From a bacterium (GTDB taxonomy: Bacteria > Patescibacteriota > Patescibacteriia > UBA9934 > GWF2-40-263): a stretch of DNA of 61,715 bases. The position numbers were made by a program, and so were the translations under genes. The notes below the pieces were generated by a model. That model was not told the DNA's origin. It was given only the letters and a program-made list of their open reading frames with translations, and searched no databases. This document shows, one piece after another, positions 19,637 through 61,485 of the stretch; the stretch's first letter is position 1; every line of letters begins with the position of its first letter. Location of the stretch: positions 1 through 61,715 of the forward strand of contig JAGVFR010000013.1 in the NCBI GenBank assembly GCA_020057555.1, given 5' to 3'.

Positions 19637-20392
19637 TCAATTTTTTTTCGACAACTTTTTGAAATAAAACCAAAAACCAAACACAACCATTACCGTTGCC
19701 ACATACTGCGCGGGTGTAAATCCAAAATATCTAACATCAATAATAGGTCCGTTAGTAGCGCGCAAAAAATCAAGTAGAAAACGAGCTATCCCCTTCCAAA
19801 CTAAAAAGACCACAATGTAAGTTCCAACTTTTGCTTTTCGATGAGCAAGCAGTAGGAAAAGACAAAATAATAGCAAACCATTTAATGAAAGGTATAAACC
19901 GAGATCATGTCGAACTCCGTCTGGAAATTTCACTCCAAGAAAAAAATTTGTCAGTCGTCCAGGGTGTTCGTGCAATAAAAAACAACCAATGCGTCCAATA
20001 AAAAATCCAAGAGGTAATCCAAAAATTGCTGTATCTGCGTAAGACCAAATATCAACACGACTTTTGTGTAAAAATAAAATTCCGAAAATTACTGAACCAA
20101 TGAATCCGCCCATCACTGACATTCCACCATTCCAAAACTTCAAAAGTTCAATCGGAGAATTAAAATAAAAAGCCGGTTCGTAGATGATGTGAAATAGTCG
20201 CGCAAAAATCATTGCGCCAATAATCACCCAAAAAGCTAGGTCCCAAATTAAATTTGAATCTTGTCCTCGGCGTTTTGCCATCCATGCTGAAACTGATGCA
20301 CCAGCCAAAATACCAAGTGCCACAAATAGACCCCAAACTTGGATTGGTATTGGACCGAGATGAATTACATCGAGATGGAAATATGGAAGCAT
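19637..20392 (-). CDS. lgt: prolipoprotein diacylglyceryl transferase
   Basis: IQVWGLFVALGILAG..., GRIGCFL, polytopic; typical Lgt. Confidence 0.9.
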   Translation of the reverse strand: MLPYFHLDVIHLGPIPIQVWGLFVALGILAGASVSAWMAKRRGQDSNLIWDLAFWVIIGAMIFARLFHIIYEPAFYFNSPIELLKFWNGGMSVMGGFIGSVIFGILFLHKSRVDIWSYADTAIFGLPLGFFIGRIGCFLLHEHPGRLTNFFLGVKFPDGVRHDLGLYLSLNGLLLFCLFLLLAHRKAKVGTYIVVFLVWKGIARFLLDFLRATNGPIIDVRYFGFTPAQYVATVMVVFGFWFYFKKLSKKN

Positions 20393-20465
20393 AGCTGTAA
20401 GCTTTTAGCTGTTAGCTTTTAGAAAAACAATCTAGTGCGTCCTAAAGGCTAATGGCTAAAGGCTT
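20393..20465. repeat. GCTAA-word palindromic intergenic repeat (family G)
   Basis: AGCTTTTAGCTGTTAGC ... GCTAATGGCTAAAGGC inverted arms between the gatA stop and the lgt start. Confidence 0.7.
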
Positions 20466-21917
20466 TTACACTGGAATTCTCTTGTGCCACTCTGTCAGAT
20501 TCTGATAATACATTCCGATTCTAAACAAAGTATATTCATCAAACGGACGACCCATTAGTTGAAGACCGACTGGCATATCTTTTGAAAATCCGCATGGCAA
20601 AGATATTGCAGGAACAGTCGCAAGATTTGCTGTGATCGTATAAATATCTGACAAATACATTGTGAGCGGATCACCAAACTTCTCACCAAGTTTCCACGCA
20701 ATCGAAGGACTTGTCGGTGTCACAATCGCATCAACATGCTTAAATGCCTCGTCAAAATCTTGTTTAATAAGTGATCTTACTTTGAGAGCTTTACGATAAT
20801 ACGCGTCATAATATCCGGCAGAAAGCGCGTAAGAACCAAGCATTATTCTGCGTTTCACTTCAGGGCCAAACCCTTCACCACGAGAAAGTGAGTATGTTTC
20901 AGCAAGATTGTTTCCGGTTGAATGATAGCCATAACGCAAACCATCATACCGACCGAGATTTGAACTTGCTTCACATGGCATTATTATGTAGTAAGTTGCA
21001 AGCGCATATTCTGTGTGCGGCATTGAAATTTCCTCGACTTTTGCCCCACCCTTTTCAAGTTCTGCAACAGCGTTCATGACAAGTTTTTCTACATCCTTAT
21101 CCATTCCTTTCAAAAAATATTCTTTCGGAATTCCAATTTTCATTCCATCAACAGACGGATTCATTAATTCTGGAACACTTGTGTCTTTTAGCTCAACAGA
21201 TGTCGCATCTTTTGAATCTTTTCCTTCGATTGTTGACATGAGAAAAGCAACATCCTCAACTGTTCGAGCAAAAGGCCCGATTTGATCCAAGCTTGATGCC
21301 ATTGCCATTAAACCATAACGAGAAACTCGTCCATAAGTTGGTTTAAGTCCGACTACGCCACAAAGTGAAGCTGGTTGTCGAATTGATCCGCCCGTGTCAG
21401 AACCAAGCGCGATTGGCGCGAGTCCAGCCGCGACAGCAACAGCAGATCCACCGCTTGAACCACCTGGAACTCGTTTTTTATCCCAAGGATTTTTTGTTGG
21501 ACCAAAGTGCGAAGTTTCAGTTGATGAACCCATCGCGAATTCATCCATGTTTGTTCGTCCCAACAAAATCGCTCCAGCTTTTTTTAATCTCTCAACAACT
21601 GTTGCGTTGTAAATGCTTTTGTGACCTTCAAGAATTTGCGAGCCTGAAGTGTTTCCCCATCCTTTAACCATCATGTTGTCTTTCAACAGAACTGGAACAC
21701 CAGCGAGCTTGCCCAAAGATTTTCCTTCAGCTCGGGCCTTATCAATTTTTTTTGCATCGTCTTGCGCTGTTGGTGAAATTTCCAAAACAGAATTCAAATC
21801 CTCATCAACATCTTTAATTCTTTTTTGATAAGCCAAAACAAGTTCTTCAGAAGAAAATTTTTCTTTTTCAAGAGAGCTAACGATTTCTTTGAGAGTAAGT
21901 GTTGAAACATCAATCAT
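20466..21917 (-). CDS. gatA: Glu/Asp-tRNA amidotransferase subunit A
   Basis: Amidase signature GGSSGGSAVAVAAG...GSDTGGSIRQPA. Confidence 0.95.
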   Translation of the reverse strand: MIDVSTLTLKEIVSSLEKEKFSSEELVLAYQKRIKDVDEDLNSVLEISPTAQDDAKKIDKARAEGKSLGKLAGVPVLLKDNMMVKGWGNTSGSQILEGHKSIYNATVVERLKKAGAILLGRTNMDEFAMGSSTETSHFGPTKNPWDKKRVPGGSSGGSAVAVAAGLAPIALGSDTGGSIRQPASLCGVVGLKPTYGRVSRYGLMAMASSLDQIGPFARTVEDVAFLMSTIEGKDSKDATSVELKDTSVPELMNPSVDGMKIGIPKEYFLKGMDKDVEKLVMNAVAELEKGGAKVEEISMPHTEYALATYYIIMPCEASSNLGRYDGLRYGYHSTGNNLAETYSLSRGEGFGPEVKRRIMLGSYALSAGYYDAYYRKALKVRSLIKQDFDEAFKHVDAIVTPTSPSIAWKLGEKFGDPLTMYLSDIYTITANLATVPAISLPCGFSKDMPVGLQLMGRPFDEYTLFRIGMYYQNLTEWHKRIPV

Positions 21918-22224: not shown

Positions 22225-24809
<2,585 letters not shown>

Positions 24810-24833
24810 GATGTTTGAAAAATTCTGATCCAA

Positions 24834-24853
24834 CCCACGGCTAAAGCCGTGGG
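24834..24853. repeat. REP hairpin 3
   Basis: CCCACGGCT-AA-AGCCGTGGG immediately upstream of the RAYT gene. Confidence 0.8.
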
Positions 24854-24860
24854 TTACCAA

Positions 24861-25625
24861 CTATACAAACAAACTCAAATACCACTGCAATGGTGCATTA
24901 CCAAAAAACAGAATCACGGCGGTTCCGATTGCCATAAACGTTCCAAAAGCGATCGGAGTTTTCCGATCAACGCGTTTTGTCAAAAGAAGCATAACGCCAA
25001 TGATCGCGCCAAGCAAATATGCTAAAAACAGCGCAACAAGCCCTTGATTCAGTCCAAGCATAAGTCCCATAAGCGCGCCCATGCGAATGTCTCCACCGCC
25101 AACCCAAGCACCGTTTGATATAACAAATTGAAGATAAAAAAATCCACCAAGAACAACTGCACCAGTAATTAATGACATCGCGGGAACTGTACCGAGCCAA
25201 AGATTAAAAATTATCGCGACTATCATTGCTGGAATTGTAAACCGATCCAGAATGTACATGTGCTTCAAATCGTAAACAAAAATCAAAATTAAAAACGCGA
25301 TGAAAATCCAATCACGAACAATCGTGTACATTCCTTCGATCGAACTGTCATTAAACTTAGAATAAAAAAGAAGAAATAAAATTCCAGTAACAAATTCAAC
25401 AAGTGGATATTGCCACGAGATTACATTTTTACATTTACGACATCTTCCACGCAAAATAAAAAAACTCAACACCGGAATCAAGTCGTGAGCTGAAATTGGT
25501 TCCTCGCAAGTTTTGCATTTTGATCGTCCTTTAATTACTGAACGACCTTCATGAACACGAAAAATGGCAACGTTTAAAAAACTGCCAATGCAGACACCGA
25601 AGACAAAAACAAGAAATTGAAACAT
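24861..25625 (-). CDS. pilD: prepilin peptidase (A24 family)
   Basis: CxxC...CxxC (KCKTCEEP...RCRKCKNVI) and a polytopic C-terminal half with GGGDIRMGALMG. Start at MFQFLVF; the track extension covers non-coding element A. Confidence 0.9.
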   Translation of the reverse strand: MFQFLVFVFGVCIGSFLNVAIFRVHEGRSVIKGRSKCKTCEEPISAHDLIPVLSFFILRGRCRKCKNVISWQYPLVEFVTGILFLLFYSKFNDSSIEGMYTIVRDWIFIAFLILIFVYDLKHMYILDRFTIPAMIVAIIFNLWLGTVPAMSLITGAVVLGGFFYLQFVISNGAWVGGGDIRMGALMGLMLGLNQGLVALFLAYLLGAIIGVMLLLTKRVDRKTPIAFGTFMAIGTAVILFFGNAPLQWYLSLFV

Positions 25626-25956
25626 AAAATATCCCTGTCGTTTGGTTGCAATAGAGACAGACGGGACTCCTTTTTCTTGGCCTTCATACAGAACCAACGG
25701 CAGAAAAAGCGTCCCGCAACTGTCTCTTGTGAACCTTGTTGATTTATTGAATGTATTGAGGCTAAAGAGAGAGGTTTGTAAGATCGTTCGGATCCTCTGT
25801 TCGCCGACATCCGGAGCCGACCTGTACAAACACTCATTAACCACAACGATTCACGTCGGCGAGGACTAAGCCGCCACCACTCACGTTGGTTATCCTCGTC
25901 GACCACGGCGGCGGTCAAGAACAGAGGAACCGGACGATCTTATTTGCAATTCAATT
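25626..25956. ncRNA. unclassified structured element, copy A (shared ~170-nt core at 25626-25796 plus a nested GC-rich hairpin at 25780-25941)
   Basis: No credible ORF. The long hairpin GAGACAG..GGGAC..CTTTTTCT / AGAAAAAG..GTCCC..CTGTCTC is conserved with copy B at 58268-58434, with a variable apical loop and indels that are not multiples of 3. Confidence 0.45.
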
Positions 25957-26463
25957 CTACTCCGTACACGTCCCTGCCTCCATTCCATCTGGTGTTGCGC
26001 AATTTACCCCTGTTTGAAGTCCAACAGCAGTTAACCCATTTTCAAGTTCAAAATGAATAACATATGAATCACCCTCGTCAAGAACACTGTAACAAAAAGC
26101 ATTTCGAGCCGGCTCTCCGCATGTGATTATGCCTTTCAAACCATTTTCATATGTTCGTGGAACACGTCGCAAAAATACCGCTTCTTCACTTGAACAATCA
26201 CTTCCAAATCCCGACAAACTTAAACACGCGCTTTGCGCAACATCACCAAGCGGCAATAAATTTCCAAGTGGATAGGAATTATTTTCATTGAAATAATCCT
26301 CAAGCGCACTCTGAACCAAACGCACGTTTGACAAACGTGTTGCGTCACGCTGTTTAGAACGAGCGGAATTCACAGCAACTGCCGAGAATGTTCCAACAAG
26401 CGCGATAATGGCTACAACAACGAGAATTTCTATATGAGTAAAACCTTGTTTTTTTGTGTACAT
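25957..26463 (-). CDS. type IV pilin / pseudopilin
   Basis: Prepilin leader MYTKKQG|FTHIEILVVVAIIALVG. Confidence 0.9.
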   Translation of the reverse strand: MYTKKQGFTHIEILVVVAIIALVGTFSAVAVNSARSKQRDATRLSNVRLVQSALEDYFNENNSYPLGNLLPLGDVAQSACLSLSGFGSDCSSEEAVFLRRVPRTYENGLKGIITCGEPARNAFCYSVLDEGDSYVIHFELENGLTAVGLQTGVNCATPDGMEAGTCTE

Positions 26464-28548: not shown

Positions 28549-28597
28549 CCAGAATTATCTGGACAAATAACGTATCAAAATATAACAATATTGTCAA
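28549..28597 (-). promoter_or_regulatory. promoter plus CCAGA/TCTGG palindrome for the 27669..28325 gene
   Basis: Minus strand: TTGACA (28597-28592), 17-nt spacer, TACGTT, then TCCAGA-TAAT-TCTGG. The -35 overlaps the rnhA stop codon. Confidence 0.5.
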
Positions 28598-29010
28598 TGC
28601 CTCAATGAATCTAAAACTTTATTCACCAACTCATCAGCTTCTTTGTTTTTTTCACGACGAACATGCGTGAATGTAACTTTACGAAATGAATGCAAAAGAT
28701 TCTTAACTTCTAAAAATCTTTTAGCGATTTCTGAATCTTTAACTTTGTATTCACCTTTAAGCTGACGATACGCAAGTTCTGAATCGAGATAAACTTCGAT
28801 CTGTCTGCAACCGAGCGCGCGAGCTTTTTCAAGACCAATAACAATCGCTATGTACTCAGCTTGATTGTTTGTTGTTTTGCCAAGATATTTTGAAGCTGTC
28901 GCGATTGTTTTACCTTCTTTTCCAGCGATAATTTCTTTTAATACAGCGGCTGACGCGGCAGGTCCTGGGTTTCCACGAGAACCACCGTCGGTGTAGATAC
29001 GGAGATGCAT
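28594..29010 (-). CDS. rnhA: ribonuclease HI
   Basis: IYTDGGSRGNPGPAA..., NNQAEYIAIVIGLE, REKNKEADELVN. Start at MHLRIY; the track extension reads through a word repeat. Confidence 0.9.
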   Translation of the reverse strand: MHLRIYTDGGSRGNPGPAASAAVLKEIIAGKEGKTIATASKYLGKTTNNQAEYIAIVIGLEKARALGCRQIEVYLDSELAYRQLKGEYKVKDSEIAKRFLEVKNLLHSFRKVTFTHVRREKNKEADELVNKVLDSLRH

Positions 29011-29016
29011 AGAATA

Positions 29017-29055
29017 TGAAAAAGTCCAAGAAGACCAAAAGGACCAAAAGGATAA
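29017..29055. repeat. GGACCAAAAGG word repeat (family K)
   Basis: GTCCAAGAAGACCAAAAGGACCAAAAGGA directly upstream of the rnhA start. Confidence 0.6.
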
Positions 29056-29060
29056 AAACA

Positions 29061-30155
29061 TTAACGAATTAGTTTGATTAACTGTGGAAGCTCTGCAACT
29101 GTTTCTACACGAAATCGCACGCGGCCAAGAACTTGCCCGCGTTTTGTTTCAACATCAACACGCCACAAACCAGGGGTTATAGCTGTTTTCATTGAATACC
29201 CGCGATACCCTTCCTCGCGACCACCGGTAATTGAAAACGACAAACGATCTTTTTGAATCCACGCGTGTTTTTCTTCATCATAAATTTGCCAATTATGAAC
29301 AACAATCGTGTTCAGTTCGGTTGGCGCAAAAATTGATGAAAAAACAAACACGCGATCGCTTTTTTGTATGTGAATTGTTTGAACTGGAAGAATGCGTTCG
29401 ATCAGACTTCGATTCTCATCAAGAATTTGATACTGACCATCTGAACGCATGACACTATGATACACACCAGCTTCTCGAAGTGAAAGAGGAATTGGCGGAA
29501 TCAGATTCAAAAAATACAAAGCGTTCATTATAACGAAAATTGACAGTGTGCAGACTATAACTCGCTTCCCTGTTAATCTTATTTTTTCAAAAAACTTTGC
29601 AAGAACCGATAGATACAACAAGAAAAATCCAAGACTCAAGACGCCAGACGCGACGAAAAATAATGGATCGATTGAATTGAACAAGTAAGAAAAAATTACA
29701 GAGAAAACAGAAAAGAGAACAAAATAATATACACTCATGTGAATCAACGGCCTGACATACGCTGTACGGAACACTTCATTTGACAGCATTAGGAATGCAA
29801 TCAAAATGAGCAGTGGCCAGCTCACGGAAAACGATCCGCTAAACCAATAAAAAATAAAAGACGCGCTCAAAAGCGCGCCAAGCGAAAACTGAAGAATAAG
29901 CGGAGCAAGCAAACAAAGATAAGAAATTATTTTGCCTTTACGGTTTACGATATATAACAACACTATTGCAGAACCGACAATTACAATATGAACAGCAAGA
30001 ATCAAAAACGCAGTTTGAATTTGAATGCTTTTGAATGTTACAAAATCAACTGCAACACCAAACAAGAGCGTGCCAGGAAGAAGCACACGTTCGTATTTCT
30101 CAAAAAAAAGTTTCAATTTTTCGTATCGAACCAATCTTTTCACTTGCTCTTTCAT
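29061..30155 (-). CDS. polytopic membrane protein with C-terminal beta-rich domain (DUF2914-like)
   Basis: About 8 TM helices followed by ...GLWRVDVETKRGQVLGRVRFRV. ATGA overlap with the maf stop. Confidence 0.45.
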   Translation of the reverse strand: MKEQVKRLVRYEKLKLFFEKYERVLLPGTLLFGVAVDFVTFKSIQIQTAFLILAVHIVIVGSAIVLLYIVNRKGKIISYLCLLAPLILQFSLGALLSASFIFYWFSGSFSVSWPLLILIAFLMLSNEVFRTAYVRPLIHMSVYYFVLFSVFSVIFSYLFNSIDPLFFVASGVLSLGFFLLYLSVLAKFFEKIRLTGKRVIVCTLSIFVIMNALYFLNLIPPIPLSLREAGVYHSVMRSDGQYQILDENRSLIERILPVQTIHIQKSDRVFVFSSIFAPTELNTIVVHNWQIYDEEKHAWIQKDRLSFSITGGREEGYRGYSMKTAITPGLWRVDVETKRGQVLGRVRFRVETVAELPQLIKLIR

Positions 30156-32615: not shown

Positions 32616-34406
32616 TTATTCGCGTTTTAATACTTTAAGATAAGCGTCTGTCGGAATGTTTACTGTCCCTTTTCCGATTTCTGCCATTTTTGCTTTTCCC
32701 TTTTTCTGTTTTTCCAAAAGTTTACGCTTGCGTGTCACATCTCCACCATAAAGTTTCGCAGTAACATCTTTACTCATCGCGGATATTCGCTCTGATGCAA
32801 CAATTTTTCCGCCAATACTCGCTTGAAGTTTGATAACAAAATTTTCCCTTGGAATAGTGTCTTTTAAAATATTTAACACGCGTCGTCCGGTGCGCTGTGC
32901 TTCATTTTGATATACAAGAGTAGCAAACGCGTCAACAGCTTCTTCAGCAACCAAAATATCCATGCGCACAACATCCGCGTCGCGATATCCAATCAATTCA
33001 TAATTCATCGAACCATATCCAGCAGTTGCGCCTTTTAGTTTGTCGTAAAAATCCACAATGATCATTGAAAGTGGAATTTCGTAATGCAAGATCGCGCGCT
33101 CGCCAAGAAGATACTCTGTATTTTTATATACACCGCGTCGCTCTTGCACAAGATTCATAATTCCACCGATATATTCTGAAGGACTTACAATATCCATTTT
33201 CACCCAAGGCTCCTCAATCTTCTCAATAAAAGAAGGATCAGGAAGTTCCAATGGACTTTTGATAGTTTTTATTTCGCCTTTTCGCAAAATCACTCGATAA
33301 GCAACCGAGGGAACAGTAACAACTAAATCAAGACCGAATTCACGTTCCAAACGCTCTTTGAGAATTTCCAAATGCAACATTCCAAGAAGTCCAGCGCGAA
33401 ATCCATAACCAAGCGCTGGTGAATGTTCTGATTCATAAACAAGTGAAGAGTCATTTAGTTTGAGCCGTTCGATCGCTTCACGCAAACGTTGAAAATCATC
33501 CCCTTCTTTTGGAAAAACTCCGGCATAAACCATTGGACGAACTTCTTTGTATCCAGCAAGCGCTGAAACGTTCGCGTTTCGATCGGTGATTGTGTCACCA
33601 ACACGACAACTTCCAATCTCTTTCAAACCACTTACCATATACCCGATTTGTCCGCATTCAAGAATCGGCGATGATTTCAAACCGCCAGGAGTTACTGCTC
33701 CAACTTCTAAAACTTCAAATGTTTTATCAGTGGCAACCATGCGCACAAGGGATCCTTTTTTAATTTCTCCGTCCATGACGCGAATGTATGCCATGACTCC
33801 GCGATAATCGTCGTAGAATGAATCAAAAATGAGCGCGCGAGTTGGCGAATCTTTTTTTCCAGATGGCGGCGGAATTCGATTCACGATTTCTTGCAATAAT
33901 AGTTCAACCCCATGCCCTGTTTTTCCACTCACACATAAAATTTCCTCTGGTTTGCATCCGAGTAATTGAACAAGCTCTTCCTTTCTACGTTCAACATCAG
34001 CGGCTGGGAGATCAATTTTGTTGAGAACCGGAATGATTGTGAGTTCCTCTTCAAGAGCAAGATATAAATTGCCGATTGTTTGAGCTTGAATTCCTTGTGT
34101 CGCGTCAACAAGAAGTACCGCGCCTTCAACTGCCGCAAGAGAGCGAGAAACTTCGTAATTGAAATCAACGTGACCCGGAGTGTCAATCAAATTTAAGATA
34201 GTGTCTCTCCACATCATTCTTGCTGGCGCGAGTTTAATCGTAATTCCCTTCTCACGTTCCAAATCCATTGAATCCAAAATCTGTTCTTTCATGTTTCGCT
34301 TATCAACAGTTCCTGTAATTTCAAGCAACCGATCCGCGAGAGTGGATTTTCCATGATCAATGTGAGCAATAATGCAAAAATTTCGGATATTGGATTGATC
34401 GGACAT
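32616..34406 (-). CDS. lepA: translation elongation factor 4 (LepA)
   Basis: IRNFCIIAHIDHGKSTLADR, DTPGHVDF, NKID, LepA C-terminal domain. Confidence 0.97.
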   Translation of the reverse strand: MSDQSNIRNFCIIAHIDHGKSTLADRLLEITGTVDKRNMKEQILDSMDLEREKGITIKLAPARMMWRDTILNLIDTPGHVDFNYEVSRSLAAVEGAVLLVDATQGIQAQTIGNLYLALEEELTIIPVLNKIDLPAADVERRKEELVQLLGCKPEEILCVSGKTGHGVELLLQEIVNRIPPPSGKKDSPTRALIFDSFYDDYRGVMAYIRVMDGEIKKGSLVRMVATDKTFEVLEVGAVTPGGLKSSPILECGQIGYMVSGLKEIGSCRVGDTITDRNANVSALAGYKEVRPMVYAGVFPKEGDDFQRLREAIERLKLNDSSLVYESEHSPALGYGFRAGLLGMLHLEILKERLEREFGLDLVVTVPSVAYRVILRKGEIKTIKSPLELPDPSFIEKIEEPWVKMDIVSPSEYIGGIMNLVQERRGVYKNTEYLLGERAILHYEIPLSMIIVDFYDKLKGATAGYGSMNYELIGYRDADVVRMDILVAEEAVDAFATLVYQNEAQRTGRRVLNILKDTIPRENFVIKLQASIGGKIVASERISAMSKDVTAKLYGGDVTRKRKLLEKQKKGKAKMAEIGKGTVNIPTDAYLKVLKRE

Positions 34407-34501
34407 AAAAAATGAAAGCCGTTAGCTTTTAGCTGTTAGCCGTTAGAACAGAAAATGCGTTTGCTTTACCTAAAGGCTAATGGCTAAAAGCTAGTGGCTA
34501 T
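34407..34501. repeat. GCTAA-word palindromic repeat (family G)
   Basis: GCCGTTAGCTTTTAGCTGTTAGCCGTTAG ... CTAAAGGCTAATGGCTAAAAGCTAGTGGC. Confidence 0.7.
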
Positions 34502-37763: not shown

Positions 37764-38641
37764 AAATCGGAATTCTAATTTTGTCAGAACCAGCGCTTGA
37801 TAACTACACCGGAGTTGTACGACTTGAAGAAACAGCACAAGCACTTGGCCACACTGTTGTTCGTTTGTACGAACCAAATTTTTCGCTTTGTGGCGATGAA
37901 CTTTTTTACGATGGAAAACAAGTGCCAGAAGTTGACGTGATAATTTCGCGACCAAACTTTATTGAAGAACCAAGTTTACATTTTTATGTTGTAAACACAC
38001 TGATTGAAAAAGGATATCGAGTTCTAAATGGTAAACCGTCATTTGCGATCGCGAAAAATAAAATCGAGCAGTTGCGTGTGTTTCAAAAAAATAAATTGCC
38101 TTATCCAAAAAGTTTTATAACAAAAAATCCAGAGATCGCGCTTGATGCTATAAAACAAATTGGTTTTCCTGTTGTGATAAAAGTCGCTTTTGGAACAATT
38201 GGAAAAGGAGTTTTCTACGCGCCAAATCAGGAAACGTTCGGCCCAATTGTTGAGTACTTGGCGATTCGAGACCGAAATCCAGTGATCGTACAAGAGTTTA
38301 TCAAAGAGGCTGACCGAAAAGATTTGCGAGTGTTTATTATTGGAGGAAAAATCATTGCATCAATGGAACGTTGCGCGCCTGAAGGTGATATTCGAGCAAA
38401 CACGAGCAATGGTGGAACCGGAAGATCAGTAACACTTACCGATCAAGAACAAAAACTGGCTCTTCAAACAGCTAAAGTGTTTGATTTGGATATTATCGGA
38501 ATTGATATAATTCGATCGAATCGCGGGCCACTTGTTTTGGAAGTAAATTCAAATCCAGGATTTACCGAACTTGAACGCGCAACAGAAACTGATGTCGCAA
38601 AAGCAATTATTCTCTACTGTGTCATAACGGCTAACGACTAA
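37760..38641 (+). CDS. rimK: RimK-family ATP-grasp ligase
   Basis: FPVVIKVAFGTIGKGV, DLRVFIIGGKI, IGIDIIRSNRGPLVLEVNSNPGF. Confidence 0.85.
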   Translation: MKIGILILSEPALDNYTGVVRLEETAQALGHTVVRLYEPNFSLCGDELFYDGKQVPEVDVIISRPNFIEEPSLHFYVVNTLIEKGYRVLNGKPSFAIAKNKIEQLRVFQKNKLPYPKSFITKNPEIALDAIKQIGFPVVIKVAFGTIGKGVFYAPNQETFGPIVEYLAIRDRNPVIVQEFIKEADRKDLRVFIIGGKIIASMERCAPEGDIRANTSNGGTGRSVTLTDQEQKLALQTAKVFDLDIIGIDIIRSNRGPLVLEVNSNPGFTELERATETDVAKAIILYCVITAND

Positions 38642-38706
38642 TGGCTAATTGCTCAAAAATAAAAAAGCAAGCCGAGTTGGCCTGCATAGAACGTGGAACA
38701 AAGAGT

Positions 38707-41213: not shown

Positions 41214-43766
41214 TTATCTCTCTCCAATCGGCGGAGGCTGTGGACCGCGAGGGGCTGCGCCAAGCGCAGTTCTCTCAAGAATATCCGCCTCAACTAAACG
41301 ACGGTCTCGTCCGTATTTCAATCTTGATAACTCTTTGATTCCTTCCGCCAATTCCCGATCGCCAAGCGGCGCTGGTTCAAGTTTCATCGTGAATGGTTTG
41401 ACTTGCGAATTTCCAACAATCATTCGAACATACCAAGTAAACTTGTCTGAATTCATCAAATCATATCCGGCAAAATCAGGGGTGTAAATTTTTTCAAGAG
41501 TATCAACATCTTCAGGACCAATGCGCGCAACATACGTTGTACCAACGTTTCCAAAAACAGCGTCTTTGATTTTTGTATCATTATTTTTTACAAGTTGGCC
41601 GATGTATTGATGCGCGATAATCAAATTCAATCTATACTTGCGAGCTTCTGATAAAATAGTCGCGATCGAATCTGTTATGAAATTTTGAAACTCATCAATA
41701 TATAAGTAAAAATCGTGTCGCTGTTCTTCTGGAATATCCGCGCGTGTTAGAGCCGCCATCTGAAGTTTCGAAACAATAATCATTCCAAGCAGGTCAGCGT
41801 TTACATCACCAGTCTTCCCTTTTGATAAATTAACAAGCAGAATTTTTTTCTTATCCATGACTTCGCGAAAATCAAAACTTGAATGCGTTTGGCCGATTAT
41901 ATTTCGCATCATTTCATTTTCAACAAAACGACCGACTTTTGAAATCAAATATCCTAGCATTTCTGATTTGTGAAAATCACTTGTTTTTGCCATTTCGTTT
42001 TCCCAAAATGAACGAACAACAGGATCTTTCACTTTTGCGACCCAGCGTTTTTGAAAAGCTTCATCTGAAAACATGCGTGGAATTTCAGCAATCGTGCCAG
42101 GCTGTTCAGGATCAGACATGAGAGTCAACATCACATTTCGCATGTTGTGCTCAAACATCGGACCGATCATTTCCGGTGGAAAAAGTTTGTAAAAAATCGA
42201 GATCATTTCTTGAACAGCAAAATCTTTCATTGATTCATCTTTAGCTTCAAGCATATTCAACCCCATCGGACGTTCCAAGTCTGATGGATTGAAATGAACA
42301 ACATCATCCACTCGCTCGCGAGGAATGTTTCCTAAAATCTGTTCAATCAAATCTCCGTGCGGATCAACAACCGCAACTCCGTGTCCAGCTTTAATATCTT
42401 GGATCGCGTATTTCGCGATTGTTTGAGATTTTCCAGAACCGGATTTTCCAATTAAATACATGTGACGAGTTCTGTCGGAATTTTTCATCCACACAGGCGT
42501 CTTGATCCCGCGATAAACGTTAAATCCTAATTCAAAATCTCCATCTGAAGGGCCACTTGGAACACCTGAAGGAACAGATCCGCTTCTCGCTCCCAACCAT
42601 TTGATATTTGGAGTTTCAGTCCATGGCAAAGGCAAATGCCAAAGACTTGCCATTTCTTCCGCGTTCAAAACCATTTTATATTTTTCATCAATCGTTCGAT
42701 AAATAAATTGTTGAATGAGATTCTTTTTTGAACGAGGCACGGCTTTCACAAACGAATTCCCATACTGATAAATGTTAAACTGCGAAAACGCGTTCAACAT
42801 GTTTTGAAGAGTTGATTCTGCGGCTGTTGCAGTTTGAGAAGCAACAACAAGTCTCACACAAACATTCAGTCCAGCTTTACTGGCTTTCTCTTCAAGCCCT
42901 TTTACAACCTCTTCTTCTTGCGGAGACAAACGATAATCTCTGTCTTCTTTTTCTTTGTTATCACCTCCACCTGTAAGTTGTTGAAGTGTGCTCTTGTGCC
43001 CTTTTTTCTTTCCTTTGAGCGCGTCACTCAAACTCATGCCTTGTTGCATGCTAGAAGCAAGAGCAACTCCTCGCGAACGCCAAGATTTATATGCAGAACG
43101 AACAACAAATTGAAAAACGGCTCCTTCTCCTTCTGGAACACTTGTTAAAACATTTGTTAGAGAATTGAGTGGATCCTTGTCGAGTTTGCGATATGTTTTG
43201 ATTGGAAACGCGCTTTCTCGAGCAAAACGAAGATAACTTCCGACAATAACGCTTTGCGCCGAAAAAATGTTGTAGTCTTCGACTTCTTCCAAATACGCAT
43301 CCGGATATGCGGCAGAAATCTGCTGTTCAACATAAGTGGCCATGTGCATTGGAACAGTTACAAAAAATTGAATCAATTTATGTTCAACAACAATTTCAAA
43401 AGCGACTTCGTCTGATCTTCCAAAAAACCATTGCTTCAAGCCTCGCTCTCCTTTCAAGCCACCAATCGCTGAAAAAACAGTTTCAGCGGCCGCGATTGCT
43501 TCTTGCACTTCCTCTTTTTGCGGACCGCGATTGCTTTCTTCTTCTCGACGAAATTTTGGAAGAGTTACGAGTATTGTTCGGCTTTGAAATGTTGCGTGTT
43601 TTGCCGCGTTCGTTTTACGTATAAACCAGCGTAATAAAAAAAGACAACAAAAAAATAAAACAGCTACAACTGGAATCCAAACAAAATCCATGTAAGCAGA
43701 AATATCAAATTTTTCTGCTTGGATTAGTTGAGCTTCTGGCTGCAAAAACATTTGAAGCAATATCAC
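41214..43766 (-). CDS. membrane-anchored TraD/VirD4-like P-loop ATPase (coupling-protein family)
   Basis: N-terminal TM helix. Walker A IGKSGSGKSQ. VVDPHGDL. Walker B FYLYIDEFQNF. IIAHQYIGQL. Confidence 0.7.
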   Translation of the reverse strand: MILLQMFLQPEAQLIQAEKFDISAYMDFVWIPVVAVLFFCCLFLLRWFIRKTNAAKHATFQSRTILVTLPKFRREEESNRGPQKEEVQEAIAAAETVFSAIGGLKGERGLKQWFFGRSDEVAFEIVVEHKLIQFFVTVPMHMATYVEQQISAAYPDAYLEEVEDYNIFSAQSVIVGSYLRFARESAFPIKTYRKLDKDPLNSLTNVLTSVPEGEGAVFQFVVRSAYKSWRSRGVALASSMQQGMSLSDALKGKKKGHKSTLQQLTGGGDNKEKEDRDYRLSPQEEEVVKGLEEKASKAGLNVCVRLVVASQTATAAESTLQNMLNAFSQFNIYQYGNSFVKAVPRSKKNLIQQFIYRTIDEKYKMVLNAEEMASLWHLPLPWTETPNIKWLGARSGSVPSGVPSGPSDGDFELGFNVYRGIKTPVWMKNSDRTRHMYLIGKSGSGKSQTIAKYAIQDIKAGHGVAVVDPHGDLIEQILGNIPRERVDDVVHFNPSDLERPMGLNMLEAKDESMKDFAVQEMISIFYKLFPPEMIGPMFEHNMRNVMLTLMSDPEQPGTIAEIPRMFSDEAFQKRWVAKVKDPVVRSFWENEMAKTSDFHKSEMLGYLISKVGRFVENEMMRNIIGQTHSSFDFREVMDKKKILLVNLSKGKTGDVNADLLGMIIVSKLQMAALTRADIPEEQRHDFYLYIDEFQNFITDSIATILSEARKYRLNLIIAHQYIGQLVKNNDTKIKDAVFGNVGTTYVARIGPEDVDTLEKIYTPDFAGYDLMNSDKFTWYVRMIVGNSQVKPFTMKLEPAPLGDRELAEGIKELSRLKYGRDRRLVEADILERTALGAAPRGPQPPPIGER

Positions 43767-44251
43767 AAACGTAGAATTTTATCTGTTTTTATTTTTGCTT
43801 CTTGTTCAAGGAAAAAACGGTTAACGCCTGGAATCAATTTAAGCCAATTGCGAATGAGCAAAAAAATCTTTTTTGCGTTCACTTTTGTTTTGTGAACAAT
43901 CTGCATGATCTTTGACAAGGTTTTTTCTCCTTCTGCTTTGAATACTTCTTGTTTGTCTTTTGGCATTGAAAGATAAAGATCAGTCAGATCTTCCTGAAGA
44001 ATTGATTCAATTTTTTGCTCAATCGGATCGGTTGTTACTTGAACTACTGAAGCGACCACGACCGGTTTCACTGTGACTTCCTGACTGACACCAGTTTCAC
44101 TTTCTTGTTTTCCCTCTTGGTCCTCTTGGTCCTTTTGGTCTTCTTGGACCTCTGGGCCTTCTTGGACCTCTGGGCCATTTCCCTTTTCAACCAAAACCCG
44201 CTCCGCTTCCTGCGGAGTTTCTTTTGGCTTGAGTGCTGGAAAATCTACCAT
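43763..44251 (-). CDS. hypothetical protein with an acidic word-repeat tract
   Basis: GPEVQEGPEVQEDQKDQEDQEGK is encoded by family-K-like DNA words. GTGA overlap with the ATPase gene. Confidence 0.5.
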   Translation of the reverse strand: MVDFPALKPKETPQEAERVLVEKGNGPEVQEGPEVQEDQKDQEDQEGKQESETGVSQEVTVKPVVVASVVQVTTDPIEQKIESILQEDLTDLYLSMPKDKQEVFKAEGEKTLSKIMQIVHKTKVNAKKIFLLIRNWLKLIPGVNRFFLEQEAKIKTDKILRL

Positions 44252-48455: not shown

Positions 48456-49874
48456 TTAAGACTCGAGCTTTGCAGAATTAGCGGCGGCGGTTACGGATTC
48501 GGAATACGACGGAAACGCGTGGATCATGCCGGCTAATTTGTCTATTGTAGCATTGAGATAAATCGCAAGCGCAATTTCGTGAACCACTTCCCCAGCACGT
48601 TCACCGATTATGTGGCCTCCAAGAATCTTTCGCGTTTTCGGATGAGCAATTATCTTGATAAGTCCTTCTGAACCGTGTTCTGTTGCTGTTCGTCCAAGCG
48701 CGGAAAACGTATAACGACCTACCAAAACTTTTCCGAGCGCTTCTTTTGCTTCTTTTTGTGTCATTCCAACTGACGCAACTTCGGTTGATAAAAATGTTAC
48801 TCGCGGTACAACACGTTCGTCTATTTTCATTCGAGTTGTTTGTTTCTTTTTCGCCATAAGCGCGGCATTGTGTCCGGCAACATATCCTTCGTGATGCGCT
48901 GTGTGTGTGAATTGCATTCCACCACATACATCGCCTGCGGCAAAAATATACGAAACTGACGTTCGTTGTTCATTTGTCGTGATAACGCTTCCACGACTGC
49001 CAATCTTGACTTCCAACTTTTCCAAACCAAGACCATTAGTATTCGCTCGACTTCCTGCCGCTAAAACAACTTGTTCAACAGCGTGCATTGTGCGATTCCC
49101 TCCTACGTCAACATTTACACCATAAACTCCGCCACCACCATTTACAACCTCAACGACATTTGCGTTCGTAACAACCTCAACTCCAAGCGATTCGAGTGCT
49201 TTGCGAGCCAAACCGGCAATCTCTACGTCTTCGCGATGCAAAACCTGTGACGCACTTTGAATCAAAACAACGCGTGTGCCAAAAGACGCAAAAAATGTCG
49301 CGAGCTCACATCCAACCGGACCTCCACCAATAATTCCAAGCGACTTTGGCTGACGTTTAAGACGAAAAGCATCCTTCCACAGCAGATACTTAAGTGTATC
49401 TATTCCCTGAATTGGCGGAACAAATTCCACAGATCCGGTTGCAATTACAAACGTTTTTCCAATCAAATTTTCTCCTTTTACTTCAATTGTATGCTCATCA
49501 ATAAATTTTGCTTTGCCAATTTTCACAACAATGCCAAGTGAACGAAATATCTTTTCATATCTCGTTCCATAAGTTCCTCCACCAGTAATTGACTGAACAA
49601 CATTTTCACGATATTTCATCACTAAATCATAGTTGTACGAAACTGAACCAACACTCACACCGTAATCTCTCGCGCGATTTGCCAAACGATAAACAGACGC
49701 GGTTTTTAGAAGAGCTTTTGATGGAACGCAAGCATAATTTGGACAGTCTCCTCCGAGCCTTTCGTGTTCAACAACACAAACACTCGCACCGGCTTTTCGC
49801 GCAACTTCAGCAGCTGAAAAACCAGCAGACCCAGAGCCGATTATGATTACATCAAATGTTTGGATTTTGGGCAT
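48456..49874 (-). CDS. FAD/NAD(P)-dependent pyridine nucleotide-disulfide oxidoreductase (Lpd / mercuric reductase-like)
   Basis: DVIIIGSGSAG, redox-active GGDCPNYACVPSK, GGGPVGCE, C-terminal dimerisation domain. Confidence 0.85.
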   Translation of the reverse strand: MPKIQTFDVIIIGSGSAGFSAAEVARKAGASVCVVEHERLGGDCPNYACVPSKALLKTASVYRLANRARDYGVSVGSVSYNYDLVMKYRENVVQSITGGGTYGTRYEKIFRSLGIVVKIGKAKFIDEHTIEVKGENLIGKTFVIATGSVEFVPPIQGIDTLKYLLWKDAFRLKRQPKSLGIIGGGPVGCELATFFASFGTRVVLIQSASQVLHREDVEIAGLARKALESLGVEVVTNANVVEVVNGGGGVYGVNVDVGGNRTMHAVEQVVLAAGSRANTNGLGLEKLEVKIGSRGSVITTNEQRTSVSYIFAAGDVCGGMQFTHTAHHEGYVAGHNAALMAKKKQTTRMKIDERVVPRVTFLSTEVASVGMTQKEAKEALGKVLVGRYTFSALGRTATEHGSEGLIKIIAHPKTRKILGGHIIGERAGEVVHEIALAIYLNATIDKLAGMIHAFPSYSESVTAAANSAKLES

Positions 49875-49885
49875 ATGTAAAAAGA

Positions 49886-49990
49886 TAGTAGGAAAGTAGC
49901 AGAGTAGTATAGTAGCAAAGGGTTAAAACAAATTTTCAAGCATATTTTTATTTCCCTATGCTACTTTGCTTCTTTTCTACTTTGCTACTG
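49886..49990. repeat. GTAGCAAAGTAG word palindrome (family T)
   Basis: TAGTAGGAAAGTAGCAGAGTAGTATAGTAGCAAAGGG ... CCCTATGCTACTTTGCTTCTTTTCTACTTTGCTAC. Confidence 0.7.
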
Positions 49991-54760: not shown

Positions 54761-54797
54761 TTTACTACTCCGCTACTTTACTACTCTGCTACTATCC
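54761..54797. repeat. CTACTTT word repeat (family T)
   Basis: CTTTACTACTCCGCTACTTTACTACTCTGCTACTATCCC ends 3 nt before the rpmB ATG. Confidence 0.6.
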
Positions 54798-57336: not shown

Positions 57337-57341
57337 ATTGA

Positions 57342-57419
57342 CGGAGCCGAGTTGAACTATGTCGTAGGGAACAGCGGCGACAGTCCGATGGCCCGGAAAC
57401 ATAGTTCAACTCGGCTCCG
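57342..57419. repeat. perfect 20-bp inverted repeat directly upstream of hflX
   Basis: CGGAGCCGAGTTGAACTATG - 38 nt - CATAGTTCAACTCGGCTCCG; GC-rich. Confidence 0.7.
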
Positions 57420-57439
57420 GAAATCATTTCAATCATACC

Positions 57440-57846: not shown

Positions 57847-58227
57847 TCAATCTTTATGCACAGCGAACCATTCACCTGCTTTTTGAATGTCATCTTGAAT
57901 GATCTTTGCCATCTCGTCTTCCCCAGGAAATGGCACTAAATCCCTTATTTTATTGCATAAAACAACGTTCAGATGTTTTCCTGTAAGGTCTATCTCCTTC
58001 TGATTGAGTAGGTGAACTTCGATTTTTAGATGGTATCCTGTTCTCCCGTCATTTATGCAAATTAGCGATGGAAAGAGTATTCCTTCAAGTTCTGTATTTC
58101 CAACATAAACCCCAAGAGCGGGGATTACCGCGCCTTGCTCCACAGCTAAATTAGCTGTTGGACAGCCCATTCGTGTGGCCATTCCCTCCCCTTTTTCCAC
58201 ACGACCGCAAAAACACAATTCACGCAT
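57847..58227 (-). CDS. ribK: riboflavin kinase domain protein
   Basis: GRVEKGEGMATRMGCPTANL ... IEVHLL ... IRDLVPFPGEDEM. Confidence 0.75.
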   Translation of the reverse strand: MRELCFCGRVEKGEGMATRMGCPTANLAVEQGAVIPALGVYVGNTELEGILFPSLICINDGRTGYHLKIEVHLLNQKEIDLTGKHLNVVLCNKIRDLVPFPGEDEMAKIIQDDIQKAGEWFAVHKD

Positions 58228-58267: not shown

Positions 58268-58434
58268 AGGATCGTTCTCAACTTACAACCTTCCTCTTTA
58301 GCCTCAAGCCAATCAGTCAATAACTTTAGGTTCACAAGAGACAGTTACGGGACGCTTTTTCTGCCTCTATTCGATGTATAAGGCCAAGAAAAAGTCGGCC
58401 CGTCTGTCTCTACTGGAACAAACGACAGGTTATT
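58268..58434. ncRNA. unclassified structured element, copy B (inverted relative to copy A)
   Basis: AGGATCG..CTTACAACCTTCCTCTTTAGCCTCAA...GGTTCACAAGAGACAGTTACGGGACGCTTTTTCTGCC...AAGGCCAAGAAAAAG..CCCGTCTGTCTCTACTGGAACAAACGACAGG aligns to the reverse complement of 25626-25796. Confidence 0.45.
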
Positions 58435-58911
58435 CTAAAAATTCTCCTTGATAAAACTCAACGCGCGTTTGAGAATTGGAATCATGTCTGGATAACTTGA
58501 TTGTTTCAAGACAGCGCTTATCGGCAACCACTTTGCATCAAGCGCGTGTTCTTTTGGATCTGGATGTAAATTCGCATTACCGGGTGTTTCAAAAAGAAAA
58601 AAATGAATGTCTTTGTGAATCAACTTCCCTTTTTTACTAAATTGATCGCGAAACCAAATATCAATTTGACCAAGCTCTTCAAGCAAACGAATCTGTTCAA
58701 GTCCAAGCTCTTCTAGTGTTTCGCGAGCCGCCGCTTCTTCAAGCTCTTCACCTTTTTCAACATGACCTTTTGGAAAGGTCCACTTTCCATACGAATCTTT
58801 CATCATCGCGATTAAAAGACGGCCCTTTGAACGTTTCAAAACAATTCCTCCTGCTGATTCTTCCTGTTCAACCGGTTCACGGTGTTTTATTTTCAGTTTT
58901 TTGTTCAACAT
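58435..58911 (-). CDS. NUDIX hydrolase
   Basis: Nudix box GHVEKGEELEEAAARETLEELGL. Confidence 0.9.
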   Translation of the reverse strand: MLNKKLKIKHREPVEQEESAGGIVLKRSKGRLLIAMMKDSYGKWTFPKGHVEKGEELEEAAARETLEELGLEQIRLLEELGQIDIWFRDQFSKKGKLIHKDIHFFLFETPGNANLHPDPKEHALDAKWLPISAVLKQSSYPDMIPILKRALSFIKENF

Positions 58912-60124
58912 AGGTACCTAAGATAACCTTGATCGCAACATCAAGTTGAGGATCAATTCCTTTTTTGAATTCTTCAATCGCAAACTGTATGACAATGTCA
59001 GGTGTGATTCCTGTTTCGTGAATCGTGCGACCTTTTGGCGTATACCAAGTTGCGGTTGTAACTTTCACAGCTGACCCGTCGCTTAATTCTCGATAATCCT
59101 GAACAGAACCTTTACCAAACGTTTGAGTACCGACAAGTTTAGCGACTCCGTAGTCCTGCAAAGCACCAGCAACAATTTCAGAGCCTGAAGCGCTTCCGCC
59201 ATTCACCAAAACAACTGTTGGAATATCAGCAAGACGTGCCGCGCTCATTCCTTTGAAGGTTTGCGCGTTTTCTTGTGCTTTTTCGATCACAACTGGTTGA
59301 TATCCAATCCAAGCCGATGCAACATCAATGGCTGAAGTGAGAAGTCCACCTGGATTACTGCGCAAATCAAGAATTATTCCACGAACATTTTTTGTAAGTG
59401 TTTCTTGAATCGCGTCCAAAAATAATTCAGCTGTGTCATCATTGAATGTTGAAATTGAAATTCGCATGATGTTGCTTTCATCAATCTTCCACTTCACTGA
59501 ATCAATAACAATTTTTTCGCGTGTGATCGTAATTTCTGTAAGTGAATCCAAACCATTTCGACTGATAGACATCTTAACTTGTGTTCCAGCGTCACCGCGA
59601 ATTTTTGAAACTGCTTCATCAACGCTCATACCAAGTGTTTCAACCCCATCAATCATCACAATCCAGTCGCCTGGTTGAATACCAGCACGAGCGGCAGGGG
59701 CATCATCAAGCGGAGCAACAATAACCAACTTTTCATCTCGAATTCCAATTTCTGCGCCTATCCCACTAAACGACCCGTTCAAACTCGAAATAAATTCCTC
59801 TGCGTCTTTTGGATCAAAATAAACTGAATATGGATCGCCGAGTCCTTCAAGAATTCCTTTGAGCGCGCCGTAATACAAATCCTCATCAGATACTGGCTGT
59901 TTGTAATATGAAGTTTTTGCAAAATTCCAAACATCCCAAAATTGTTGAAAGTCAACTTTATCTTCGATTGCAGTTTGACCTTTAGATTCAGGAATCAGAT
60001 TTTGTGTTGAACGTGCGCCTCCGACAAAATATCCAATCACAAACGAAAACACGATAATAAGCGCGCTAAAAAGAAAAAGTACTGTGTGCGGGATATTCTT
60101 TTTTGGAAAAAAGATTGAAGGCAT
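58877..60124 (-). CDS. ctp: carboxy-terminal processing protease (S41) with PDZ domain
   Basis: PDZ PAARAGIQPGDWIVMIDG; catalytic region DLRSNPGGLL ... NGGSASGSEI. Start at MPSIFFPKK. Confidence 0.9.
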   Translation of the reverse strand: MPSIFFPKKNIPHTVLFLFSALIIVFSFVIGYFVGGARSTQNLIPESKGQTAIEDKVDFQQFWDVWNFAKTSYYKQPVSDEDLYYGALKGILEGLGDPYSVYFDPKDAEEFISSLNGSFSGIGAEIGIRDEKLVIVAPLDDAPAARAGIQPGDWIVMIDGVETLGMSVDEAVSKIRGDAGTQVKMSISRNGLDSLTEITITREKIVIDSVKWKIDESNIMRISISTFNDDTAELFLDAIQETLTKNVRGIILDLRSNPGGLLTSAIDVASAWIGYQPVVIEKAQENAQTFKGMSAARLADIPTVVLVNGGSASGSEIVAGALQDYGVAKLVGTQTFGKGSVQDYRELSDGSAVKVTTATWYTPKGRTIHETGITPDIVIQFAIEEFKKGIDPQLDVAIKVILGTYVEQKTENKTP

Positions 60125-60130
60125 GATAAA

Positions 60131-60167
60131 AAGTAGTATAGTAGAAAAGTAGCAAAGTAGCAAAGGG
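60131..60167. repeat. GTAGCAAAGTAG word repeat (family T)
   Basis: AAGTAGTATAGTAGAAAAGTAGCAAAGTAGCAAAGGG between the divergent ctp and PEGA genes. Confidence 0.65.
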
Positions 60168-60196
60168 AAGTGAATTCTGCTATTTTAGCATCGCCT

Positions 60197-61393: not shown

Positions 61394-61398
61394 AAAAC

Positions 61399-61485
61399 CC
61401 TAGCCATTAGCCACTAGCCATTAGCTTAAATAATTCTTTTTAATTCCTAACGGCTAACAGCAAACGGCTAACAGCAAACGGCTTT
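61399..61485. repeat. GCTAA-word palindromic repeat (family G)
   Basis: CTAGCCATTAGCCACTAGCCATTAGC ... CTAACGGCTAACAGCAAACGGCTAACAGCAAACGGC between convergent genes. Confidence 0.7.

Follow-up and report, generated by a model that had tools for sequence, protein, structure and literature searches.

What kind of sequence would stand twice, in opposite orientations, between unrelated genes of one small bacterial genome? The contig JAGVFR010000013.1 of a member of the Patescibacteriota (61,715 nt, the whole of which we call the window) carries a hairpin-forming element of about 170 nt in two inverted copies, copy A between a pilin gene and the prepilin peptidase gene pilD, and copy B between a Nudix gene and a riboflavin kinase gene (ribF). 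A preliminary description, made from the sequence alone, had regarded the element as a conserved RNA or DNA structure, with a decaying local duplication as the alternative. Both are now found to be members of a repeat family of Candidatus Uhrbacteria that is non-coding, modular, and dispersed, and we consider it probable that the family is a non-autonomous mobile element of the kind represented by miniature inverted-repeat transposable elements (MITEs) and bacterial interspersed mosaic elements (BIMEs). The family is multi-copy and dispersed, and its members have been inserted or lost at orthologous sites.

Comparison of the window with itself (blastn) confirmed the two inverted copies, pairing 25634-25782 with 58429-58282 on the minus strand at 83.0% identity over 153 columns (E 1.8e-34), and found no third copy in the 61,715 nt; a repeat search of the window returned the same pair as three pieces (I1, I2 and I6). 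Over the ~107-nt core (25634-25740 versus 58324-58430), 91/110 aligned columns were identical, including 37/38 in the 5' arm, the longest identical run was ~20 nt, and divergence was greatest in the apical loop, in agreement with the ~90% identity outside the loop that had been estimated by eye. Both copies form the long hairpin previously described, with minimum free energies of -47.8 kcal/mol (z -2.9) for copy A and -48.2 kcal/mol (z -3.4) for copy B on the shown strand, and the complementary strands folded comparably (z -2.1 and -3.6). A G-to-A change that retains pairing with U was likewise found, at alignment column 24/82. Indels between the copies are single bases and read-through open reading frames (ORFs) recur in only 4/36 copies of the family, which upholds the claim that the element is non-coding. 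The assignments of the flanking genes were right by Pfam: copy A lies between the pilin (N-methyl) gene at 25957-26463 and pilD at 24861-25625, and copy B between the riboflavin kinase gene at 57847-58227 and the NUDIX gene at 58435-58911, all four on the minus strand. Copy A is co-directional with its neighbors, while copy B is antisense to them.

Further copies were sought in related genomes and in groundwater metagenomes, whose loci are designated by L-numbers (L005 and L037 belong to the metagenome-assembled genome [MAG] JACPHT, and L039 to JACQXU). The 5'-arm pattern CACAAGAGACAGTTNCGGGAC, run against one genome per species, gave 10 matches, all in two groundwater Candidatus Uhrbacteria MAGs (seven in JACPHT01, three in JACQXU01). 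A 3'-arm pattern, designed to fit all 12 copies known by then, found 24 further loci among metagenome contigs, for a total of 36 copies of 160-520 nt, two in the window and 34 in the two MAGs and groundwater metagenome contigs. An nhmmer core profile built from unbroken copies matched the copies at E 1e-37 to 1e-49 and added just a few fragments within these loci. At least seven copies are present in a single MAG of the ~1 Mb class. The window is 82-91% identical in DNA to the family-bearing loci over syntenic genes, which makes its own organism a member of the Uhrbacteria. Three scans of viral contigs, with the 5' arm, the 3' arm, and the module A end described below, returned 0 matches, so no phage carrier is indicated.

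All copies occupy short intergenic spacers, usually 0-15 nt from a stop or start codon; 19 copies have the tail of the element directed at the start of the following gene, and 15 at its end. The neighbors are unrelated housekeeping genes (encoding RF-1/2, RecR, MreB, YceG, epimerases, and glycosyltransferases), and no recurrent neighbor gene or transposase stood beside the element apart from orthologous contexts. A decaying local duplication restricted to this genome might have been suspected from the window, which holds only two copies that are 83% identical, and the preliminary description would have favored it had the element been absent from any related genome and not transcribed. With 10 copies in MAGs and 24 in metagenome contigs, and with both window sites empty in relatives, it is ruled out, and we assign it next to no probability.

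Alignment of the 36 copies and a search for module ends showed that the full unit is ~330 nt long, or up to ~520 nt with nested inserts, and is polar, with four parts that have the following consensus:

Module A, ~160 nt, GC-rich, starting GATCGTTCGG and closed by a 21-24-bp inverted repeat: GATCGTTCGGATCCTCTGTTC-TTGACCGCC ... GGATGTCGGC-GAACAGAGGATCCGAACGATC
Linker, ~50 nt, conserved and non-palindromic: TTACAAACCTTCCTCTTTAGCCTCAAGCCAATCAGTTAACTACTTTAGGT
Imperfect hairpin, ~75 nt: CACAAGAGACAG-TT-ACGGGAC-R-CTTTTTCTGCC, loop, GGCCAAGAAAAAG-NN-GNCCCGT-CTGTCTCTAC
Tail: TGGAACAAACGAYRG(G), ending ...CAAACGAYRG(G)

Accordingly, the features of the two copies in the window are:

25626-25956, minus strand: copy A, the whole 331-nt insertion from the pilin stop codon (25957) to the pilD start codon (25625), a full-length "long form"
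25779-25942, minus strand: module A of copy A, GC-rich, with arms at 25919-25942 and 25779-25802 and GATCG...CGATC spanning 25782-25939
25728-25778, minus strand: linker of copy A, TTACAAACCTCTCTCTTTAGCCTCAATACATTCAATAAATCAACAAGGTTCACA, conserved and non-palindromic in the alignment of 36 copies and spanned by the nhmmer profile in 25 full-length matches
25653-25727, minus strand: long hairpin of copy A, AGAGACAG-UU-GCGGGAC-G-CUUUUUCUGCC, loop, GGCCAAGAAAAAG-GA-GUCCCGU-CUGUCUCU, from the folds
25634-25652, minus strand: tail (right terminus) of copy A, ATTGCAACCAAACGACAGG, where the family alignment ends ...AAACGAYRG(G)
25626-25633, minus strand: extra sequence GATATTTT between the tail of copy A and the pilD ATG, from comparison of pilD junctions
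58269-58429, plus strand: copy B, a short form, from blastn and nhmmer (58283-58430, E 7e-49)
58269-58282, plus strand: what copy B retains of the left arm of module A, GGATCGTTCTCAAC, matching the left terminus GATCGTTCGG of long copies, with the rest of module A deleted
58283-58336, plus strand: linker of copy B, from alignments and nhmmer
58337-58411, plus strand: long hairpin of copy B, from the folds
58412-58429, plus strand: tail (right terminus) of copy B, ACTGGAACAAACGACAGG, ending 5 nt from the Nudix stop codon

These boundaries amend the preliminary description in three respects. Copy A had been said to end 4 nt before the pilD ATG (25625-25623), whereas homology stops at 25634, 8 nt before it. 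The aligned extent of the copies holds to 25782/58282; beyond that point, only the short remnant GGATCGTTC at 58269-58277 resembles a module arm. The rest of the interval 25626-25956, at 25779-25942, is not spacer but a 164-nt GC-rich module with a 24-bp inverted repeat. The arms of this module are 91.7% complementary over their 24 bp, and it folds at -74.4 kcal/mol (z -4.2). Alignments of 294-353 nt with 25627-25942 were obtained for four other loci (L010, L011, L018, and L025). To place the boundaries of copy B, its spacer was compared to the orthologous ones in L012, L043, and L044; at the Nudix-side junction, TAGAATAA is followed by CCTGTCG... in the window versus AAATAGG... in L012. A 327-aa ORF with a GTG start (24861-25844, minus strand) that runs from inside copy A into pilD is an artifact of read-through of the repeat, the genuine pilD start being the ATG at 25625 (254 aa); similar spurious ORFs cross the repeat in L006, L020, and L034.

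The copies differ in which parts they retain. Module A precedes the core with the same polarity in most long copies, and it also occurs alone (L025 8313-8470 and L037 7478-7638). The left outer end, GATCGTTYG, and the reverse complement of the right one (CCATCGTTTG or CCTGTCGTTTG) share ATCGTT plus 1-3 bases, and this terminal motif appears three times in the unit, as ATCGTT at the left end, as AACGAT in the right arm of module A, and as AACGAT in the tail. Copy A is full length, copy B keeps the 9-nt GGATCGTTC of the module A left arm followed directly by the linker, and L015 and L028/L031 retain the left terminus and the right part with the interior lost. Only scraps of the right arm of module A remain in L001, L004, and L005, and some copies lack part or all of the module. 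Other sequences are nested within the element: nine copies have a GC-rich double hairpin of 58 nt instead of 14 nt of the core 5' arm, L018/L029 and L030 have other hairpins at the same point of that arm, and L017, L018, L021, and L033 have a hairpin with a 45-nt motif inside module A. As read from the alignment, the inserts in the 5' arm occur at one defined point, after GAGACA, and an alternative pairing, GGCGGG/CCCGUC, is kept. Module A, the double hairpin, and the 45-nt-motif hairpin all occur alone elsewhere, so the nested inserts are themselves dispersed.

Relatives of site A, the pilin-pilD spacer, were found by a homology search with PilD, for which no identical protein is on record. 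In L035 and L036 (PilD 92% identical) and in L037 (82%, JACPHT MAG), the pilin stop codon and the pilD ATG are separated by 3 nt, with the junction reading TAG-GTT-ATG or TAG-ATT-ATG, compared to 331 nt in the window. In L040/L041 (69%) the pilin gene and pilD overlap, and the spacer of L039 (JACQXU) contains an unrelated hairpin of heptamer repeats. By these alignments, copy A is full length and was inserted recently into the pilin-pilD spacer. The first five codons of pilD diverge unusually from those of close relatives (MFQFL versus MIPIF; window 25586-25625 compared to L035 2610-2650 and L037 4001-4040), which may reflect a compensated frameshift or the replacement of sequence when the element was inserted.

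At site B, the Nudix-ribF spacer of L043 (83%) and L044/L045 (77%) is ~50 nt long, has a promoter-like TTGCCA...TAGATT, and lacks the repeat. The corresponding spacer of L012 (93%) has half of the GC-rich double hairpin plus a 45-nt-motif hairpin, and in L042, whose Nudix protein is 97% identical, the left arm of module A stands in the opposite orientation directly after the Nudix stop codon, where the contig ends. Two other sites behave alike: L005 (JACPHT) has the element at a position that holds a different hairpin in the window (34407-34501), and L037 has module A between ligA and gatC, a spacer of 2 nt in the window. Together, the sequence comparisons show that closely related genomes have repeatedly and recently gained or replaced sequence in these tiny spacers. 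Gene order across copy A (pilM-pilin-pilD-RAYT-ligA-gatC-gatA, where RAYT stands for a repetitive extragenic palindrome [REP]-associated tyrosine transposase) and across copy B (ctpA-Nudix-ribF-HU-hflX) is the same in relatives without the element. The assembled arrangement is thus ancestral, and a fixed inversion between copies A and B is ruled out by the synteny kept across both.

We favor a non-autonomous mobile element because the family is multi-copy, has deletion derivatives that keep their ends, repeats its terminal motif three times, and is present or absent at orthologous sites. The element would be moved in trans by a putative transposase or recombinase encoded elsewhere. One enzyme could move module A alone or module A together with the core, since the ATCGTT motif is shared by both outer ends and the right arm of module A. 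Copy B and similar short forms would be internal-deletion derivatives in which both termini were kept. An inserted element would be transcribed with its neighbors, in either orientation, and its stem-loops would form at most an incidental RNA hairpin; candidate effects are attenuation or termination downstream of the pilin gene, which is highly expressed, and stabilization or processing of the mRNA. The AGG of the tail may sometimes serve as the ribosome-binding site of the next gene.

Several observations weigh against this interpretation. The outer termini are similar over 6-9 nt only, no autonomous partner with the same ends was seen within ~390 kb of related loci, and no transposase adjoins any copy. 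The filled and empty pairs at pilin-pilD, Nudix-ribF, and ligA-gatC show no target-site duplication, and extra nucleotides flank the recognizable element at pilin-pilD (15 + 8 nt) and module A of L037 (8 + 32 nt). Two of the orthologous comparisons, the L005 site and site B of L012, are replacements rather than clean insertions, and recombination or gene conversion between repeats may therefore be behind part of the turnover. A purely selfish model also leaves the strong conservation of the linker unexplained. TA was not consistently present at both flanks across copies, and a possible duplication at site A, of 12-15 nt from the start of pilD, was rejected as unconvincing (best alignment 10/16, in AT-rich sequence).

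The structure itself was examined for signs of selection as RNA, along the lines that the preliminary description had suggested. The 24 consensus pairs of the hairpin are 99.2% paired across 21 distinct unbroken copies, which are very alike and were ascertained with arm patterns. Although pairing is kept, 17/24 pairs are invariant and only one changed on both sides (G-C to U-A, in L011), a compensatory value that was equalled in 28/500 shuffles. There were 5 G.U cells on the shown strand versus 3 A.C/C.A cells, which are G.U on the other strand. With 17/24 pairs invariant, covariation does not discriminate RNA from DNA; the palindrome is real, and the pair data favor neither RNA nor DNA, nor either strand. 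Rfam searches returned only three tRNAs for the whole window at gathering score and, for both regions at E up to 10, chance-level matches of 10-17 bits against cut-offs of 44-130. The element thus matches no Rfam family; the preliminary description had been unable to assign it to RNase P, tmRNA, SRP, 6S, FMN, or cobalamin elements.

A different enzyme candidate lies 770 bp from copy A. The ORF at 24333-24860 (minus strand), between pilD and ligA, matches Pfam Y1_Tnp and is a RAYT by NCBIfam NF047646 (REP_Tyr_transpos; 87.8 bits versus a cut-off of 80). It is single-copy, as RAYTs typically are, and has a 90% identical orthologue at the same locus in the MAG JACPHT01 (L037 4877-5368); it is missing from the locus in L035, L039, and L040. 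Three GTAG-headed REP hairpins, GTAGCCCACGGCTTTAGCCGTGG, flank it in inverted orientation (24236-24258, 24298-24326, and 24835-24863). They occur almost only around the RAYT gene and have no similarity to the element. RAYT is not our preferred mobilizer, since its own REPs differ and no additional copies of the RAYT gene were seen close to other elements. In the searchable literature we found no account of RAYT-REP systems among bacteria of the candidate phyla radiation (CPR).

How, then, do other explanations compare with a mobile element? A functional structured RNA, either a small RNA gene or a cis-acting RNA with hairpin and linker under selection and the GC-rich modules as peripheral domains, would be consistent with the stable folds (z -2.9 to -4.2), with the compensatory change in L011, and with a linker and hairpin that are highly conserved though flanking genes are only 82-90% identical between genomes. 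Inserts confined to the single point after GAGACA, with the alternative pairing preserved, and a tail that often lies 5-12 nt before a start codon point the same way. A conserved RNA structure tied to its loci is not supported: the element is multi-copy, has unrelated neighbors, takes both orientations relative to genes (19 versus 15), exists as deletion derivatives, and in close relatives is missing from both orthologous spacers, pilin-pilD and Nudix-ribF. Its supposed peripheral domains are independent dispersed repeats, other modules are nested in its hairpin arm, and the negative Rfam searches, the lack of promoter or terminator consensus flanking the element, and the lack of a wobble or mismatch strand bias among largely invariant pairs further argue against it, which makes a structured RNA unlikely. 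Even less probable, in our judgment, is a cassette selected as intergenic punctuation, in which a terminator or attenuator would be combined with a promoter pointing outward on the complementary strand (TTGAGG-17 nt-TAAGAT), and which strains would have exchanged by recombination rather than gained by transposition. Each copy does fill a short spacer beside a stop or start codon, element-free orthologous spacers often hold other hairpins (window 34407-34501; L039 pilin-pilD and ligA-gatC), the -35-like hexamer varies within TTGNNN-like forms only, as read from the alignment, and in copy B the promoter-like motif points at ribF. The promoter scan found no promoter on the forward strand, however, and the reverse-strand site scores 8/12, below the scan threshold, while ribF retains its own promoter-like TTGCCN...TAGATT downstream of the insertion in filled and empty relatives alike; the motif in co-directional copies would drive antisense transcription. 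A U-tract follows the hairpin on neither strand, and the sole terminator-like prediction lies inside an arm, so that promoter and intrinsic terminator were both rejected. Spread within a genome to at least seven unrelated sites would still require a mechanism of mobility.

The RAYT gene raises another possibility, that it moves the element as single-stranded DNA in the manner of REPINs (REP doublets forming hairpins), with the long hairpin serving as the inverted REP doublet for the HUH enzyme. RAYT mobilization leaves no target duplication, and the extragenic hairpin repeats described here likewise lack detectable duplications; the gene passes its NCBIfam cut-off and is single-copy, with the same position in the JACPHT MAG. 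As read from the alignment, the 3' arm in reverse complement usually begins GTAG-AGACAG, resembling the REP GTAG head. That head is found on one arm only, though, and is variable (ATAG, GCAG, CAAG), the REPs of the RAYT are unrelated in sequence to the element, and L039 (JACQXU) and L035 lack RAYT at the locus, yet JACQXU has at least three copies. The core hairpin is ~75 nt, with arms that are not themselves palindromic, in a whole unit of 160-330 nt with an asymmetric linker; the element is thus far longer than known REPINs and includes a conserved non-palindromic stretch, and we regard transposition by this RAYT as improbable, about as much so as a structured RNA. A purely neutral repeat does not account for the conservation of the non-palindromic linker, for the polarity of module A, which is fixed relative to the core, or for the single insertion point of extra hairpins in the 5' arm. 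There is a slim chance that the long form (330-520 nt) acts as a mobile guide-, bridge-, or scaffold-like RNA for a putative recombinase or nuclease of Uhrbacteria, or that the several families of hairpin modules together constitute the first CPR system of single-strand transposition of the REPIN-RAYT type, with longer composite substrates.

A non-autonomous mobile element would have close counterparts among known repeats. Like MITEs and in particular the Correia elements of Neisseria (known as CREE or NEMIS), the Uhrbacteria family is short (~100-500 nt), non-coding, multi-copy, and intergenic in both orientations, with presence and absence between close relatives, internal-deletion variants, and long hairpins when co-transcribed. 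In Correia elements the terminal inverted repeats are 26 bp long and the target duplication is TA, whereas here a long inverted repeat is found in module A only, the outer termini share ~6-9 nt, no duplication was found, and no related insertion sequence (IS) is known. The family thus has the size, dispersal, and orthologous presence/absence polymorphism of MITEs without their target-site duplication. BIMEs, the REP mosaics of E. coli, and BOX elements of Streptococcus pneumoniae similarly combine hairpin units in variable order and number, with units also found alone, and neighboring genomes differ in the modules that fill a given spacer. The Uhrbacteria modules are longer (58-160 nt) and unrelated in sequence, and their core has the ~50-nt non-palindromic linker.

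The REPIN-RAYT system (Bertels & Rainey 2011, PMC3116915) is paralleled by a single-copy RAYT with GTAG-headed REPs in the genome, and by a core that may be read as an inverted doublet, a ~75-nt hairpin that is extragenic and lacks a target duplication. It differs in that the RAYT-flanking REPs have another sequence and the element is asymmetric and 2-4 times longer than REPINs; a RAYT is present in the same genome, but the same repeat does not flank it. Palindrome-associated transposable elements (PATEs) derived from IS200/IS605 share sub-terminal hairpins, the lack of target duplication, and a Y1/HUH transposase relative in the genome. In contrast to the ends of IS200/IS605, module A is bounded by genuine terminal inverted repeats. 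An IS608-like TTAC target, or a PATE left end, was considered for the short copies and rejected, as their homology extends to the left beyond TTAC/TTAT/GTAA, into what remains of the module A arm. We class the element with a known kind, as an intergenic repeat that is probably mobile, and do not take it for a new regulatory RNA. We found nothing relevant on MITEs, REPINs, or RAYTs in CPR/Patescibacteria in the searchable literature.

Several other repeat families were observed in the same genomes. The 58-nt double hairpin, TAGGCGGGGTCCCTTGACCCCGC...CGCGGGGTGTGGGCACCCCGCCTA, has 10-nt inverted ends and occurs at L012 6340-6397 and L032 6410-6467 and in L013, L016, L017, L019, L021, L022, L027, and L033, with half copies at L012 11899-11927, L026 3609-3633, and L030 799-821. 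It is also found outside the core (L032) or alone, and at one orthologous locus it is present in L012 and L027 and absent from L014/L023. A second dispersed hairpin family is defined by a conserved apical motif of ~45 nt, CATGTCTCCGGGCCAWCGGACT..CGCCG.TGTTCCCT.CGACATG, at window 57337-57424 (hflX-HU), L001 5437-5482, L009 2855-2925, L012 11958-12003 and 12934-12981, and in L016, L019, L020, L025, and others. Its outer stems are variable, often with GTAG, GGAG, or GAAG on both arms, in a REPIN-like manner; it is found alone, nested in module A, and, in L030, within the core hairpin, and it had no Rfam match. A further module (L035 3380-3620 and L019 179-400) starts as the left arm of module A does (GATCGTYCG.TTCCT.TGTTCTTG) and has a different interior hairpin, TTAAGCCATGCAGGGATGCC ... 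GGCATCCCTGCTCGGCTTAA; in L035 it lies between pilD and ligA, the position of the RAYT gene in the window.

The window also has intergenic hairpins whose arms are tandem repeats (20377-20468, 34401-34500, 38620-38653, 49871-49989, 54761-54797, 60108-60174, and 61386-61475), made of heptamers, with (AGCYRTT)n versus (AARGGCT)n-like arms, or of octamers, (AGTAGNAA)n. These hairpins, which may be the terminators of the lineage, also turn over quickly, as the orthologous spacers of relatives hold different ones, for example in the pilin-pilD spacer of L039 and in its ligA-gatC spacer, with (AAGAAGCT)n. Finally, an inverted repeat of 29-34 nt, GTCCAAGAAGACCAAAAGGACCAAAAGGA, occurs 15 kb apart at 29019-29052 and 44121-44163 (97% complementary over 29 nt), inside the minus-strand ORFs 28594-29061 and 43763-44251, sense in one and antisense in the other.

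The genomes of CPR/Patescibacteria, at ~1 Mb and densely coding, are usually described as repeat-poor. This Uhrbacteria lineage carries several interacting families of hairpin repeats, which insert between essential genes, in spacers of 2-50 nt, and which turn over among strains with proteins as similar as 92-97% identity. Given that the kind of element is well known, the finding is useful rather than surprising. Such repeats break contigs during assembly, as in L042, which ends inside one, create spurious long ORFs during annotation (24861-25844), and can be mistaken for riboswitches or small RNAs in motif discovery; they also mark recent genome change. In the episymbiotic lifestyle of CPR bacteria, the type IV pilus is thought to play a central part, and a structured insert of 331 nt between the major pilin gene and pilD may alter its expression.

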